The notes below the pieces were generated by a model. The model was given only the letters and a program-made list of their open reading frames with translations. It ran no database searches and had not been told where the DNA came from. Below, one piece after another: positions 7,121 to 16,429 of a stretch of DNA of 64,000 bases. The number at the start of each line of letters is the position of its first letter. Position 1 is the first letter of the stretch. The DNA lies in assembly GCF_003019035.1 (NCBI RefSeq), contig NZ_CP027447.1, one strand, 5' to 3'. A program made the position numbers and the translations under genes. The stretch is from Escherichia coli. Its GTDB lineage: Bacteria > Pseudomonadota > Gammaproteobacteria > Enterobacterales > Enterobacteriaceae.

Positions 7121-8369
<1,249 letters not shown>

Positions 8370-8465
8370 CATGCCTGCAATCTGGGAAACCGGGGTAGAA
8401 AAAAACTTGCAGGCCATAACAGTATCTACGAGGATCGTGCAATATATTTATTTTGCAAGATTGTG

Positions 8466-8499
8466 TAGGCCGGATAAGGCGTTTACGCCGCATCTGGCA
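8466..8499. repeat. REP / palindromic unit
   Basis: taggccggataaggcgtttacgccgcatctggca matches the REP consensus family. Confidence 0.5.
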
Positions 8500-8532
8500 T
8501 GAACAGTGTGCATTTTGGCAATAAATATGAAA

Positions 8533-8585
8533 CCAACTGTCATGTCGGTTTTTTTAAAGGCCGAAGGTGGTAAACCTTCGGCCTT
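8533..8585. terminator. Tandem hairpins: an imperfect terminator hairpin with T-tract (8533-8555) followed by a perfect 11-bp stem (8557-8585); likely 3' end of the small-peptide transcript
   Basis: ccaactgtcatgtcgg+ttttttt, then aaggccgaagg/ccttcggcctt; first hairpin is a near-copy of the terminator at 9011-9033. Confidence 0.45.
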
Positions 8586-8601
8586 AGCTACGTTTCCTCA
8601 G

Positions 8602-8685
8602 TTATTCAATAAACTGACGGATCAGTTCCAGCAGCGCGATTAGCGCCTTAAGAACGATGAGAACTTTATCGAGAAAAGTTTTCAT
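8602..8685 (-). CDS. Candidate type I toxin: 27-aa hydrophobic/amphipathic peptide MKTFLDKVLIVLKALIALLELIRQFIE (TisB/ZorO-like)
   Basis: Below the ORF-track size cut-off; read by hand on the reverse strand; SD AAGGGAG 6 nt upstream of ATG; single predicted helix with spaced K/E/R residues. Confidence 0.55.
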   Translation of the reverse strand: MKTFLDKVLIVLKALIALLELIRQFIE

Positions 8686-8910
8686 CCGTTGCTCCCTTAA
8701 GGGAGAAAGACAATCACAGCTTACCCTTACGTTGCCTGTAACTATGATTTTCTTCATGTGCTAGATGAGGACTGCCTCTCTCCAAATTAGAGCACCAGAA
8801 TCAGCACCACCTGTATCCTGACCAGGACTTAAAAGTACTTTTCCGCACTGCGGTAATCCCTTGAGGCAGTATCACTACTAGCGTCGGGATTGTATCGCCA
8901 ACATAGCTGT

Positions 8911-8939
8911 TTGAATATGTAGGCATCCTGACTTATAAT
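8911..8939 (+). promoter_or_regulatory. Near-consensus sigma70 promoter (TTGAAT-17 bp-TATAAT) for the candidate antitoxin sRNA
   Basis: -35 at 8911-8916, -10 at 8934-8939, predicted start near 8946. Confidence 0.5.
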
Positions 8940-8945
8940 TCACTT

Positions 8946-9033
8946 GCTAGATGAGGACTGTTTCATTTCTGCCCGGAACCACCAAGTCTTGGGCGGAAAA
9001 AATAAAAAAACCGACTGTCATGTCGGTTTTTTT
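8946..9033 (+). ncRNA. Candidate type I antitoxin sRNA (about 88 nt), divergent from the peptide gene
   Basis: Runs from promoter to intrinsic terminator without a credible ORF; its 5' 14-16 nt (ctagatgaggactg) repeat 8759-8774, so are complementary to the peptide mRNA 74-89 nt upstream of its ATG. Confidence 0.5.
9011..9033. terminator. Bidirectional intrinsic terminator (sRNA on + strand, mnmH on - strand)
   Basis: ccgac-tgtcat-gtcgg hairpin flanked by an A-run upstream and T-run downstream. Confidence 0.6.
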
Positions 9034-9096
9034 ATATCTGTATTCTGGTGCAACCATTTTGTTCTCACGACAATCGCCGTTTCAGAATACCGCCTA

Positions 9097-10206
<1,110 letters not shown>

Positions 10207-10259
10207 TCAAATCAGCTTGCGCGCTATTTTACGCGCCAACGCGCAAGGAAACTTGATTT

Positions 10260-11186
10260 TTAACTGCGTGGGTTGCCGAAAATTTCTAAAAATCCGCTGA
10301 TTTCCGGCCTGCGTTGGGTAAACAAGGTCACAATATCTTCTACCGCTTTGCCGCTGCCAAATTTGCGCCATGCCAGACTCAATGGCGAAGGAGGGCGCAT
10401 CGTTGGGATTACCCGGCTGACCAGTTGTTGATTATCGATCATTAACTGGCAAAGTGATTTTGGCAAAAAACCAATGCCAACGCCCGCCAGATGGGCGGCG
10501 ATTTTCGTTTCCATATCAGGAACAATAATCTCTTTTTGCCCTGGCAATCGCCAGGCGACGCGTTTGGTTAAGGTGCGGGCGCTGTCTTCAATATTGACCG
10601 CCGGAAAGCGCCGCAACTGCGCTTCTGTTAGCGGCTCTTCAACGTTCGCCAGCGGATGATCCGCCGCCATGACAAAGCGCCATTGCACCGATCCTAAGGG
10701 ATCAAGACTAAAGGTATTTGCCAGCGCCTCGGTTCCCGTGACGCCGATAGCCAGTGAAAAACCTTCGTATAATAGCGAATCCCAGACGCCCATATAGATT
10801 TGTCGGGAGATGTGAAACTGGGTAAAGGGGTAACGTTCATTCAGCCACGCCAGCAACTGGGCGACGGCCTGGGGGTTATAGAGCAGGTTGTTGATGACAA
10901 TATTCACCTGGCGTTCCACGCCATCATTCACCTGTTGCAGCTCGCTGGGCATACTTTCCAGCCAGCTCAGCCAGTCTCTGGCCTGGGAAAGTAGATGCTC
11001 GCCAGCCGCTGTCAACGTTACGCTACGAGTCGTACGGAAAAACAGCGCTACTCCGGTATTCTCTTCCAGAAGTTTAATGCGATAACTGATCGTCGCCGTG
11101 GTTTTACATAATCGTTCTGCCGCTTTTGAAAAACTTCCTGTTTCAGCAACCGCAATGAAAGTCCGCAAGGTTTCTGGATCGAACAT
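10260..11186 (-). CDS. allS: LysR-family activator of allantoin catabolism AllS
   Basis: 308-aa ORF with N-terminal LysR HTH; divergent from allA. Confidence 0.85.
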
Positions 11187-11293
11187 CTTCAGGTATCCCC
11201 TTTTAAATCCGCAAGTTGCGTGATTTTCTTATCCTCTGATTTATCAGTATTTTTACATGATAACCCTGTTCAATTTGTGGACTAAATCTAGTT

Positions 11294-11310
11294 TTGGAAA
11301 AATATTCCAA
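11294..11310. promoter_or_regulatory. Palindromic operator TTGGAA-N5-TTCCAA, probable AllR (IclR-type) site in the allS-allA divergent region
   Basis: Perfect 6-5-6 inverted repeat; same motif recurs upstream of gcl. Confidence 0.5.
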
Positions 11311-11415
11311 CTTTTGTATTGATGTTGTTCTCTTAAGGTTTTAGATTGCCTGTTATTGAAACCAAGCTGACCGGTCGGCGGTGGTTGAACGGAATTATGT
11401 TACAAGGACAAAGAG

Positions 11416-11898
11416 ATGAAACTTCAGGTATTACCGTTAAGTCAGGAAGCCTTTAGTGCTTATGGCGACGTAATCGAAACGCAGCAACGGGATTTTTTCC
11501 ATATTAACAATGGCCTGGTGGAGCGTTACCACGATTTGGCGCTGGTTGAGATTCTTGAGCAAGACCGTACGCTTATCAGCATTAACCGCGCGCAACCGGC
11601 GAATTTGCCGCTGACCATTCACGAACTCGAACGTCATCCGCTGGGTACTCAGGCCTTTATCCCGATGAAAGGGGAAGTGTTTGTGGTGGTCGTGGCGTTA
11701 GGTGACGACAAACCAGACCTGTCAACTCTGCGGGCGTTTATTACCAACGGCGAACAGGGGGTGAATTACCATCGTAACGTCTGGCATCATCCACTTTTCG
11801 CCTGGCAGCGCGTCACCGATTTCTTGACCATCGATCGCGGCGGCAGTGACAACTGTGATGTTGAAAGTATTCCTGAACAGGAACTCTGTTTTGCGTGA
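11416..11898 (+). CDS. allA: Ureidoglycolate lyase AllA
   Basis: 160-aa ORF; position and size match AllA. Confidence 0.9.
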
Positions 11899-11975
11899 CG
11901 CCTGCAACCGACTTGCATAAGATAAATTAATTGTTCATTGTTTATGCTCACTTGTAGGTCGGAGTTAACGTAGGT

Positions 11976-12791
11976 ATGACGGAAGTTAGACGGCGCGGCA
12001 GGCCAGGACAGGCGGAGCCTGTGGCACAGAAGGGCGCACAGGCGTTAGAGCGGGGAATTGCGATTCTGCAATATCTGGAAAAAAGTGGGGGAAGTTCGTC
12101 GGTTAGCGATATTTCTCTCAATCTGGATTTGCCGCTCTCCACGACCTTTCGCTTGCTGAAGGTTTTACAGGCAGCGGATTTTGTCTATCAGGACAGTCAG
12201 TTAGGCTGGTGGCATATAGGATTAGGTGTCTTTAACGTCGGTGCGGCGTACATCCATAACCGCGATGTCCTCTCCGTCGCCGGGCCGTTTATGCGCCGCC
12301 TGATGTTACTTTCCGGCGAAACGGTCAATGTCGCGATCCGTAACGGCAATGAAGCGGTATTAATTGGTCAGTTAGAGTGTAAATCGATGGTCAGGATGTG
12401 TGCGCCGCTGGGCAGTCGTCTGCCGCTGCATGCTTCCGGTGCGGGCAAAGCGCTGCTTTATCCACTGGCGGAAGAGGAGTTGATGAGCATCATTCTGCAA
12501 ACCGGTTTGCAGCAGTTTACGCCAACTACGCTTGTGGATATGCCCACCTTGCTGAAGGACCTGGAACAAGCGCGTGAACTGGGCTATACCGTAGATAAAG
12601 AAGAGCATGTTGTAGGCCTGAATTGCATAGCTTCAGCAATTTACGATGATGTAGGTAGTGTTGTTGCCGCTATCTCCATCTCCGGGCCTTCATCAAGACT
12701 GACAGAAGATCGTTTTGTCAGTCAGGGTGAGCTGGTCAGAGACACCGCCCGCGATATCAGCACGGCGTTGGGACTGAAAGCACATCCATAG
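11976..12791 (+). CDS. allR: IclR-family repressor of the allantoin regulon AllR
   Basis: 271-aa ORF with IclR HTH and effector domain. Confidence 0.9.
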
Positions 12792-12843
12792 TGTCTGTCG
12801 CATCCCGCTCTGCGGAGCGGGTTTTTTTGACAAAATTTGAAAG

Positions 12844-12860
12844 TTGGAAAATTTTTCCAA
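12844..12860. promoter_or_regulatory. Palindromic operator TTGGAA-N5-TTCCAA in the gcl promoter, probable AllR site
   Basis: Second copy of the 6-5-6 palindrome, about 20 bp upstream of the gcl SD. Confidence 0.5.
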
Positions 12861-12880
12861 TTAATAGAGGTAGGAATAAA

Positions 12881-14662
12881 ATGGCAAAAATGAGAGCCGT
12901 TGACGCGGCAATGTATGTGCTGGAGAAAGAAGGTATCACCACCGCCTTCGGCGTTCCGGGAGCTGCAATCAATCCGTTCTACTCAGCGATGCGTAAGCAC
13001 GGCGGTATTCGTCACATTCTGGCGCGTCATGTGGAAGGTGCTTCGCACATGGCGGAAGGTTATACCCGCGCAACGGCAGGGAATATCGGCGTATGTCTGG
13101 GGACTTCCGGTCCTGCGGGCACGGACATGATCACCGCGCTCTATTCCGCTTCTGCTGATTCCATTCCTATTCTGTGTATTACCGGCCAGGCTCCGCGCGC
13201 CCGTCTGCATAAAGAAGATTTCCAGGCCGTTGATATTGAAGCAATTGCTAAACCGGTCAGCAAAATGGCGGTTACAGTTCGTGAAGCGGCGCTGGTGCCT
13301 CGCGTGCTGCAACAGGCATTTCACCTGATGCGTTCTGGTCGCCCGGGTCCGGTACTGGTGGATTTACCGTTCGACGTTCAGGTTGCGGAAATCGAGTTTG
13401 ATCCTGACATGTACGAACCGCTGCCGGTCTACAAACCTGCTGCCAGCCGTATGCAGATCGAAAAAGCTGTAGAAATGTTAATTCAGGCCGAACGTCCGGT
13501 GATTGTTGCCGGGGGCGGGGTAATCAATGCTGACGCTGCTGCACTGTTACAACAGTTTGCTGAACTGACCAGCGTTCCGGTGATCCCAACGCTGATGGGC
13601 TGGGGCTGTATCCCGGACGATCATGAACTGATGGCCGGGATGGTGGGTCTGCAAACCGCGCATCGTTACGGTAACGCAACGTTGCTGGCGTCCGACATGG
13701 TGTTTGGTATCGGTAACCGTTTTGCTAACCGTCATACCGGTTCGGTAGAGAAATACACCGAAGGGCGCAAAATCGTTCATATCGATATTGAGCCGACGCA
13801 AATTGGCCGCGTGCTGTGTCCGGATCTCGGCATTGTCTCTGATGCTAAAGCGGCGCTGACGCTGCTGGTTGAAGTGGCGCAGGAGATGCAAAAAGCGGGT
13901 CGTCTGCCGTGTCGTAAAGAATGGGTCGCCGACTGCCAGCAGCGCAAACGCACTTTGCTGCGCAAAACCCACTTCGACAACGTGCCGGTGAAACCGCAGC
14001 GCGTGTATGAAGAGATGAACAAAGCCTTTGGTCGCGATGTTTGTTATGTCACCACCATTGGTCTGTCACAAATCGCTGCGGCACAAATGCTGCATGTCTT
14101 TAAAGACCGCCACTGGATCAACTGTGGGCAGGCAGGCCCGCTGGGCTGGACGATTCCGGCGGCGCTGGGGGTTTGTGCCGCTGATCCAGAGCGCAATGTG
14201 GTGGCGATTTCCGGTGACTTCGACTTCCAGTTCCTGATTGAAGAATTGGCCGTTGGCGCACAGTTCAACATTCCGTACATCCATGTGCTGGTGAATAACG
14301 CTTATCTGGGGCTGATTCGCCAGTCGCAGCGCGCCTTTGACATGGACTACTGCGTGCAACTCGCTTTCGAGAATATCAACTCCAGCGAAGTGAACGGTTA
14401 CGGCGTCGACCACGTAAAAGTAGCGGAAGGTTTAGGTTGTAAAGCAATTCGCGTTTTCAAACCGGAAGATATTGCACCAGCCTTTGAACAGGCGAAAGTC
14501 TTAATGGCGCAATATCGGGTACCGGTAGTCGTGGAAGTTATTCTCGAGCGTGTGACCAATATTTCGATGGGCAGTGAACTGGATAACGTCATGGAATTTG
14601 AAGATATCGCCGATAACGCAGCGGACGCACCGACTGAAACCTGTTTCATGCACTATGAATAA
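12881..14662 (+). CDS. gcl: Glyoxylate carboligase (TPP enzyme)
   Basis: ORF track 12791..14662; start moved to ATG at 12881 ([13 protein letters not shown]) with SD AGAGG, giving 593 aa. Confidence 0.9.
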
Positions 14663-14674
14663 GGGAGATAAATA

Positions 14675-15451
14675 ATGTTACGTTTCTCTGCTAATTTATC
14701 GATGTTATTTGGTGAATATGATTTTCTCGCCCGTTTTGAGAAAGCTGCGCAGTGTGGTTTTCGCGGCGTTGAATTTATGTTCCCTTATGACTACGACATT
14801 GAAGAATTAAAACAGGTGCTGGCGAGTAATAAACTCGAACATACGCTGCACAATTTACCGGCAGGTGACTGGGCGGCGGGCGAGCGGGGTATTGCCTGTA
14901 TTCCTGGCCGTGAAGAAGAGTTTCGGGATGGCGTAGCAGCAGCTATTCGTTATGCTCGTGCGCTGGGTAATAAAAAAATTAACTGTCTGGTCGGTAAAAC
15001 GCCAGCTGGTTTCAGCAGTGAACAGATTCACGCAACGCTTGTAGAAAACCTGCGTTATGCCGCGAATATGCTGATGAAAGAAGATATTTTATTACTGATT
15101 GAACCTATCAACCATTTTGATATTCCTGGTTTCCATCTCACCGGAACCCGGCAGGCACTGAAACTGATTGACGATGTTGGTTGCTGCAATTTGAAAATTC
15201 AGTATGACATTTATCACATGCAGCGGATGGAAGGTGAATTAACTAATACCATGACTCAGTGGGCCGATAAAATTGGTCACCTGCAAATCGCTGATAATCC
15301 GCATCGCGGCGAACCGGGAACCGGAGAAATTAATTACGAATATCTCTTTACGGTAATTGAAAATTCTGACTACAACGGTTGGGTTGGCTGTGAATATAAA
15401 CCCCAAACCACCACGGAAGCTGGTTTACGCTGGATGGATCCGTACCGTTAA
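14675..15451 (+). CDS. hyi: Hydroxypyruvate isomerase
   Basis: 258-aa TIM-barrel ORF directly downstream of gcl. Confidence 0.9.
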   Translation: MLRFSANLSMLFGEYDFLARFEKAAQCGFRGVEFMFPYDYDIEELKQVLASNKLEHTLHNLPAGDWAAGERGIACIPGREEEFRDGVAAAIRYARALGNKKINCLVGKTPAGFSSEQIHATLVENLRYAANMLMKEDILLLIEPINHFDIPGFHLTGTRQALKLIDDVGCCNLKIQYDIYHMQRMEGELTNTMTQWADKIGHLQIADNPHRGEPGTGEINYEYLFTVIENSDYNGWVGCEYKPQTTTEAGLRWMDPYR

Positions 15452-15550
15452 AACGTAACGCTATTCAGACAATGCTTTTTTAGGTCGCTAAGTCGGCAGG
15501 GGATCGTGTTGTCTGAATTCAGGAAAAGCGAAATTTAAAAGAGGTTAATT

Positions 15551-16429
15551 ATGAAACTGGGATTTATTGGCTTAGGCATTATGGGTACACCGATGGCCAT
15601 TAATCTGGCACGTGCTGGTCATCAACTGCATGTCACAACCATTGGTCCGGTTGCTGATGAATTACTGTCACTGGGTGCCGTCAGTGTTGAAACTGCGCGC
15701 CAGGTAACGGAAGCATCGGACATCATTTTTATTATGGTGCCGGATACGCCACAGGTTGAAGACGTTCTGTTTGGTGAAAATGGTTGTACCAAAGCCTCGC
15801 TGAAGGGCAAAACCATTGTTGATATGAGCTCCATTTCCCCGATCGAAACTAAACGTTTCGCTCGTCAGGTGAATGAACTGGGCGGCGATTATCTCGATGC
15901 GCCAGTCTCCGGCGGTGAAATCGGCGCGCGTGAAGGGACGTTATCGATTATGGTTGGCGGTGACGAAGCGGTATTCGAACGTGTTAAACCGCTGTTTGAA
16001 CTGCTCGGTAAAAATATCACCCTCGTGGGCGGTAACGGCGACGGTCAAACCTGCAAAGTGGCAAATCAGATTATCGTGGCGCTCAATATTGAAGCGGTTT
16101 CTGAAGCCCTGCTATTTGCTTCAAAAGCCGGAGCGGATCCGGTACGTGTGCGCCAGGCGCTGATGGGCGGCTTTGCTTCCTCACGTATTCTGGAAGTTCA
16201 CGGTGAGCGCATGATTAAACGCACCTTTAATCCAGGTTTTAAAATTGCGCTGCACCAGAAAGATCTCAACCTGGCACTGCAAAGTGCGAAAGCACTGGCG
16301 CTGAATCTGCCAAACACCGCGACCTGCCAGGAATTGTTTAATACCTGTGCGGCAAACGGTGGTAGCCAGTTGGATCACTCTGCGTTAGTGCAGGCGCTGG
16401 AATTAATGGCTAACCATAAACTGGCCTGA
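15551..16429 (+). CDS. glxR: Tartronate semialdehyde reductase (2-hydroxy-3-oxopropionate reductase)
   Basis: 292-aa ORF with N-terminal Rossmann motif GFIGLGIMG. Confidence 0.9.
   Translation: MKLGFIGLGIMGTPMAINLARAGHQLHVTTIGPVADELLSLGAVSVETARQVTEASDIIFIMVPDTPQVEDVLFGENGCTKASLKGKTIVDMSSISPIETKRFARQVNELGGDYLDAPVSGGEIGAREGTLSIMVGGDEAVFERVKPLFELLGKNITLVGGNGDGQTCKVANQIIVALNIEAVSEALLFASKAGADPVRVRQALMGGFASSRILEVHGERMIKRTFNPGFKIALHQKDLNLALQSAKALALNLPNTATCQELFNTCAANGGSQLDHSALVQALELMANHKLA

Follow-up and report, generated by a model that had tools for sequence, protein, structure and literature searches.

The allS-allA-allR-gcl locus of Escherichia coli contains two inverted repeats of the form TTGGAA-N5-TTCCAA, one between the divergent genes allS and allA and the other in front of gcl. 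This raises the question of which protein, if any, uses these dyads as operators, and of how a single dyad might serve each promoter region. We addressed it in a stretch of 64,000 nucleotides from an E. coli genome (contig NZ_CP027447.1), which we refer to as the window and in whose positions all coordinates are given. The answer that we arrived at, with a probability of about 0.95, is that both dyads are operators of the IclR-family repressor AllR, whose gene lies between them.

Two dyads in the allS-allA and gcl promoter regions

The features of the locus are collected in Table 1. A preliminary description of this DNA, made from the sequence without database searches, had placed the dyads in the allS-allA and gcl promoter regions. 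This placement was upheld by the gene layout, which rests on RefSeq and NCBIfam equivalogs, and by the literature, which names the same two regions.

Table 1. Genes, operators and candidate transcription signals of the allS-gcl region, in window coordinates.
Feature	Coordinates	Strand	Description	Basis
allS	10260..11186	-	LysR-type activator, transcribed leftward; site 1 target	RefSeq, NCBIfam equivalog, Pfam
Alternative allA promoter candidate	11275..11303	+	TTGTGG (11275-11280), 17 nt, AAAAAT (11298-11303); overlaps the operator	hexamer scan
AllR operator, site 1	11294..11310	.	TTGGAAAAATATTCCAA; divergent allS-allA intergenic region; centre AAATA	
Candidate allA promoter	11319..11347	+	TTGATG, 17 nt, TAGATT; top-scoring hexamer pair, kept in 9/12 sequences	hexamer scan
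allA	11416..11898	+	ureidoglycolate lyase; site 1 target	RefSeq, NCBIfam equivalog
allR	11976..12791	+	IclR-family repressor	RefSeq, NCBIfam equivalog, Pfam
Intrinsic terminator of allR and sRNA AllZ	12804..12829	+	stem 12804-12821 plus T-run	
Predicted gcl core promoter	12827..12855	+	-35 TTGACA (12827-12832), 17-nt spacer, weak -10 AATTTT (12850-12855) inside the operator	hexamer scan
AllR operator, site 2	12844..12860	.	TTGGAAAATTTTTCCAA; gcl promoter	
gcl	12881..14662	+	glyoxylate carboligase, first gene of the gcl operon; site 2 target	RefSeq, NCBIfam equivalog

The 229-bp allS-allA region has site 1 near its midpoint, at a distance of 107 nt to the start of allS and of 105 nt to that of allA. 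Site 2 follows the allR stop by 52 nt and precedes the gcl ATG by 20 nt. The centres of the two dyads are 1550 bp apart, with allR in between. Translation of gcl truly begins with the ATG at 12881. A mechanical listing has the GTG at 12791 instead; an open reading frame beginning at that GTG would overlap the allR stop and span both the terminator and the operator (12791-12880).

The paired dyads were confirmed: the pattern TTGGAANNNNNTTCCAA (TTGGAA-N5-TTCCAA) has just two matches in the 64-kb window, at 11294-11310 and 12844-12860, and in both of them the 6-bp inverted-repeat arms are perfect and separated by 5 bp. The preliminary description had called them two perfect 17-bp palindromes. Its coordinates and arms are correct and site 2 is indeed a perfect palindrome of this length, with only the central base unpaired, but site 1 is not, as its inner pair at positions 7 and 11 is A/A and non-complementary.

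We compared these two matches to the numbers expected by chance. The pattern did not occur in any of 100 dinucleotide-preserving shuffles of the window. Analytically, 0.003 matches would be expected per 64 kb, and for the two intergenic regions, at their own composition, the number is about 3e-5. No further copy of the operator was found in the window at up to two mismatches, nor was the 15-bp core found with one mismatch. When the window was scored with a weight matrix trained solely on sites of other species, the two operators reached 33.8 and 32.3 bits compared to 6.0 bits for the next position. This third-ranked position, ATGCGGAAAGTTATTTCAACC at 38592-38612, is far too weak for a site.

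The 3-kb stretch around the operators was 100% identical to that of E. coli SCU-301 and was found in 5404 of 5426 complete E. coli genomes. For the interval 10200-13200 (allS-allA-allR-gcl), two matches on plasmid records were also obtained among the complete E. coli genomes.

The dyads match published AllR sites

The AllR motif given in Table 1 of Suvorova and Gelfand (PMC8222616), who cite Rintoul 2002 and their own analysis, is KTTGGAAWAWTWTTCCAAC, and AllR is placed there in a group of regulators with A/T-rich palindromes. Site 1, taken as 11293-11311, agrees with this motif at all 19 positions. Site 2, taken as 12843-12861, agrees at 18 of 19 and departs from it at the last, which is T and not C. 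A 37-nt “AllR recognition site”, AAATCTAGTTTTGGAAAAATATTCCAACTTTTGTATT, is credited to Rintoul 2002 in the relevant passage of PMC13300388; it is exactly the sequence of the window at 11284-11320 and has site 1 at its centre. The same paper describes an 82-bp K-12 gcl fragment as an AllR-repressed reporter promoter with a basal output that is higher once an AllR-binding protein is expressed. This reporter fragment corresponds to window 12792-12873 and includes site 2.

According to the AllR passages of PMC12535856 and PMC11323563, the targets bound by AllR are the control region between allS and allA and the promoter of gcl; glyoxylate is the inducer and allantoin the corepressor. In this literature AllR represses allS and allA as well as the gcl operon, and PMC11323563 reports weaker DNA binding by AllR as glyoxylate rises. 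Direct, sequence-specific binding of the protein is credited in citing papers to Rintoul 2002 and Walker 2006.

The AllR operators of E. coli K-12 (Rintoul et al. 2002) share organism, genes and positions with those of the window. K-12 site 1 is identical to that of the window together with 10 nt of flanking sequence on either side. At site 2 the arms are identical as well, but the central unpaired base is A in K-12 compared to T in the window, with a further SNP 2 nt downstream of the site. A functional effect of these site 2 differences is not to be expected. For the exact bases protected at the gcl site, we infer them from secondary citations and from conservation.

The preliminary description had also assigned both dyads to the AllR regulon, and this assignment is borne out by the motif matches, by the identical recognition sequence and by the cross-species conservation described below. 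It is correct and also ordinary: the two dyads are AllR operators that are already in the literature. Because they are textbook-level sites and the regulon has been studied well in E. coli, they carry little weight beyond annotation. They can anchor the three promoters under AllR control, and they serve as a positive control in which real operators were correctly identified from sequence alone.

The dyads, their layout and AllR are conserved across genera

To follow the dyads beyond E. coli we took one genome per species and used the N-terminal codons of gcl as the query, which made the scan blind to the operator. Seventeen loci were obtained from 17 other enterobacterial species, covering Citrobacter, Klebsiella, Raoultella, Superficieibacter, Buttiauxella, Serratia, Ewingella, Providencia and Escherichia whittamii as well as one metagenome-assembled genome.

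A dyad was present 29-51 nt before the gcl ATG in all 17 species, with perfect arms in 16 and a change of the outermost base in the remaining one. The second dyad, in the allS-allA region, was found in each of the 11 loci that extend that far (perfect arms in nine, outermost T changed in two). The operators are thus conserved over at least nine genera. The divergent arrangement of allS and allA, followed by allR and gcl, was retained wherever the locus was long enough, and allR lay next to the dyad in every locus that reaches it (13 loci, several genera).

When the sequences were anchored on the dyad, identity to the majority base was 0.99-1.00 at the 12 arm positions, 0.87 over the five central positions and 0.60-0.70 in the flanks. 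That the arms stay unchanged from Escherichia to Providencia, Serratia and Ewingella adds modestly to the comparative evidence for these sites. Within E. coli, we aligned divergent strains by hand; the counts from short-query megablast were distorted by word size and by the low-complexity filter and were not used quantitatively. The SNPs that we observed in these strains fall in the centre of the dyad or in the flanks, right beside the operators, and none falls in the arms.

The protein itself is readily identified. AllR of the window scored 619 bits against the NCBIfam equivalog NF007548 (cutoff 406) and contains the Pfam domains HTH_IclR and IclR_C. Among the loci its identity ranges from 100% down to 55%, while a 13-residue segment of the HTH recognition helix is near-invariant across genera.

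Could IclR or another regulator account for the dyads?

One alternative is that IclR, a paralogous repressor that also responds to glyoxylate, is the main or an additional protein bound to the dyads. With the IclR family model, AllR reaches a score of 248 bits. The IclR box, TGGAAATNATTTCCA (PMC8222616), is identical to the window operators in its arms (TGGAA-N5-TTCCA) and in spacing; the operators differ from it in two to three positions, all of them central. Because arms and spacing are held in common, the sequence alone would be no bar to IclR binding. This box, which is that of the aceBAK and iclR promoters, has in common with the AllR operators the regulator family, the TGGAA half-site, the spacing of 5 bp, a centre rich in A/T and a repressor that is responsive to glyoxylate.

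The two kinds of site differ in several respects. The centre is AAWWT in AllR sites compared to ATNAT for IclR, and AllR sites add a conserved outer T/A; in both the outer T/A and the preference at the centre, the dyads follow the AllR motif and not that of IclR. The regulons also differ, that of AllR consisting of allantoin and glyoxylate catabolism and that of IclR of the glyoxylate shunt. Yamamoto and Ishihama reportedly found in 2003 that IclR uses two boxes at aceB, while in the window there is a single dyad per promoter region. Furthermore, binding and repression at the allS-allA and gcl promoters are credited to AllR in the literature, deletion of allR alters the allantoin flux, and the dyad always adjoins allR in the 13 loci mentioned above. 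We consider it very unlikely that IclR is the main or an additional protein bound to these sites, and we retain AllR.

A RutR box has been reported upstream of gcl. Allowing up to three mismatches to TTGACCANNTGGTCAA, we found no match near gcl. Three of the seven matches obtained lie within 260 bp of one another (63070-63326, two or three mismatches each); this cluster is in coding sequence and was judged to be due to chance.

Promoter elements in and around the operators

In a simple search of the region for sigma-70 promoters we obtained one match, an implausible one over the gcl ATG. The promoter candidates in Table 1 come from a separate hexamer scan.

At gcl, a -35-like hexamer begins 16-17 nt before the operator in most species. 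The whole functional gcl promoter must lie inside the 82-bp reporter fragment. Judging from the hexamers, site 2 most likely overlaps the -10/+1 region of this promoter, in which case AllR would block RNA polymerase sterically. The T-run of the upstream terminator meets the gcl -35-like TTGACA directly, 15 nt before the AllR operator. The stem of this terminator is retained in Citrobacter, Klebsiella and Superficieibacter. AllZ (b4831; Bar et al. 2021), an sRNA derived from the 3'-UTR, is annotated in K-12 RefSeq over the end of allR, at a place corresponding to window ~12594-12829. A transcription start in the table of Kim 2012, at window ~12597, coincides with the AllZ 5' end.

At the divergent region the picture is less simple. 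The better-scoring allA hexamers, TTGATG and TAGATT, are downstream of the operator; the operator centre would therefore be near -52 and not over the core promoter. The alternative allA candidate coincides in part with the operator itself. On the allS side just a conserved TGnAAAAAT-like element is visible, at ~11249-11257. Outside the operator, the allS-allA blocks that are conserved across genera are ATTTTTnCAT (11249-11258), TGTGG (11276-11280), TTGATG (11319-11324) and AGGTTTTAGATTGC (11336-11349). These blocks are probably promoter elements or sites of other regulators.

The transcription-start table of Kim 2012 has zero starts in either of the AllR-controlled intergenic regions, which fits with repression in the growth conditions used. 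The same table has a start inside allA, at window ~11581, that is assigned to allR. It fits with a promoter of allR that is its own and separate from the AllR-controlled allA promoter.

These signals bring in a second alternative, in which the dyads are conserved as promoter elements (an extended -10-like TGGAAAAAT, made up of the left arm and the centre) or as an RNA hairpin in the 5'-UTR. TGnAAAAAT-like strings do occur inside both operators, with -35-like hexamers ~17 nt upstream, and RNA hairpins of -7.1 and -4.4 kcal/mol are predicted for the dyads. However, the TTCCAA arm, which plays no part in a promoter, is as invariant as the other arm, and the same 17-mer is found at two unrelated promoters. 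The hairpins are weak, that of site 1 being no better than those of shuffled sequences (z = -1.5), and the invariant arms show no compensatory changes or covariation. We dropped the RNA-hairpin reading for its weak stability and the absence of covariation. A promoter role, on the other hand, is compatible with operator function and is not an alternative to it. The operator may itself supply the extended -10-like element, so that AllR and sigma-70 may compete for the same bases. As a replacement for the AllR operators, this second alternative is even less probable than binding by IclR.

The last alternative, that both palindromes are chance matches, has nothing in its favor but the A/T richness of intergenic regions, and given the shuffles, the small intergenic expectation and the persistence of the dyads over the genera examined, its probability is negligible.

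How single dyads might serve three promoters

With both dyads taken as AllR operators, the following mechanism can be proposed. Each 17-bp operator offers two TTGGAA half-sites ~11 bp apart, or about one helical turn, and with this spacing one AllR dimer (in a tetramer) could contact both half-sites from one face of the DNA, through its two recognition helices of the winged-helix type. From site 1, bound AllR represses the two divergent promoters, those of allS and allA, and from site 2 that of the gcl operon. Following the literature, glyoxylate lowers the affinity of AllR for DNA and thereby leads to induction, and allantoin acts as the corepressor. For the divergent region, we infer rather than observe how the single site 1 represses both promoters.

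This architecture differs from that of the TtgV-type operators, which are tandem dyads with 18-22 nt between the dyad centres as described in PMC8222616. Here the nearest other dyad is the partner site 1550 bp away, and, apart from the operator itself, no position within 50 nt on either side of either operator has a weight-matrix score greater than 0. Tandem dyads are common among the tetrameric regulators of the IclR family, to which AllR belongs and whose members bind as dimers or tetramers, but they are not obligatory. In all 11 other species in which both dyads are visible, they are single and are 1548-1647 bp apart. The layout of one dyad per promoter and two dyads per locus is therefore shown to be conserved.

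The only AllR structure in the PDB is that of the effector domain (1TF1), which has four chains; an AllR-DNA complex is not among the entries. With one dyad per region, and with AllR described as tetrameric in addition to its four chains in the crystal, bridging of the two operators is conceivable. It could be speculated that one AllR tetramer bridges the operators over 1.55 kb and loops out allA-allR, which would couple the repression of allS, allA and gcl. We regard such a loop as unlikely, although less so than either of the two alternatives to AllR binding considered above in detail.

Sequence flanking the locus

E. coli SCU-301 is collinear with the window and has 30 mismatches to it over 7200-16200. 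Upstream of mnmH in SCU-301, the segments corresponding to ~7340-8320 and ~8602-8685 contain an IS621-family transposase and a small toxin open reading frame annotated as dinQ. At the matching place, K-12 has ylbG and the ybbD/ylbI pseudogenes.
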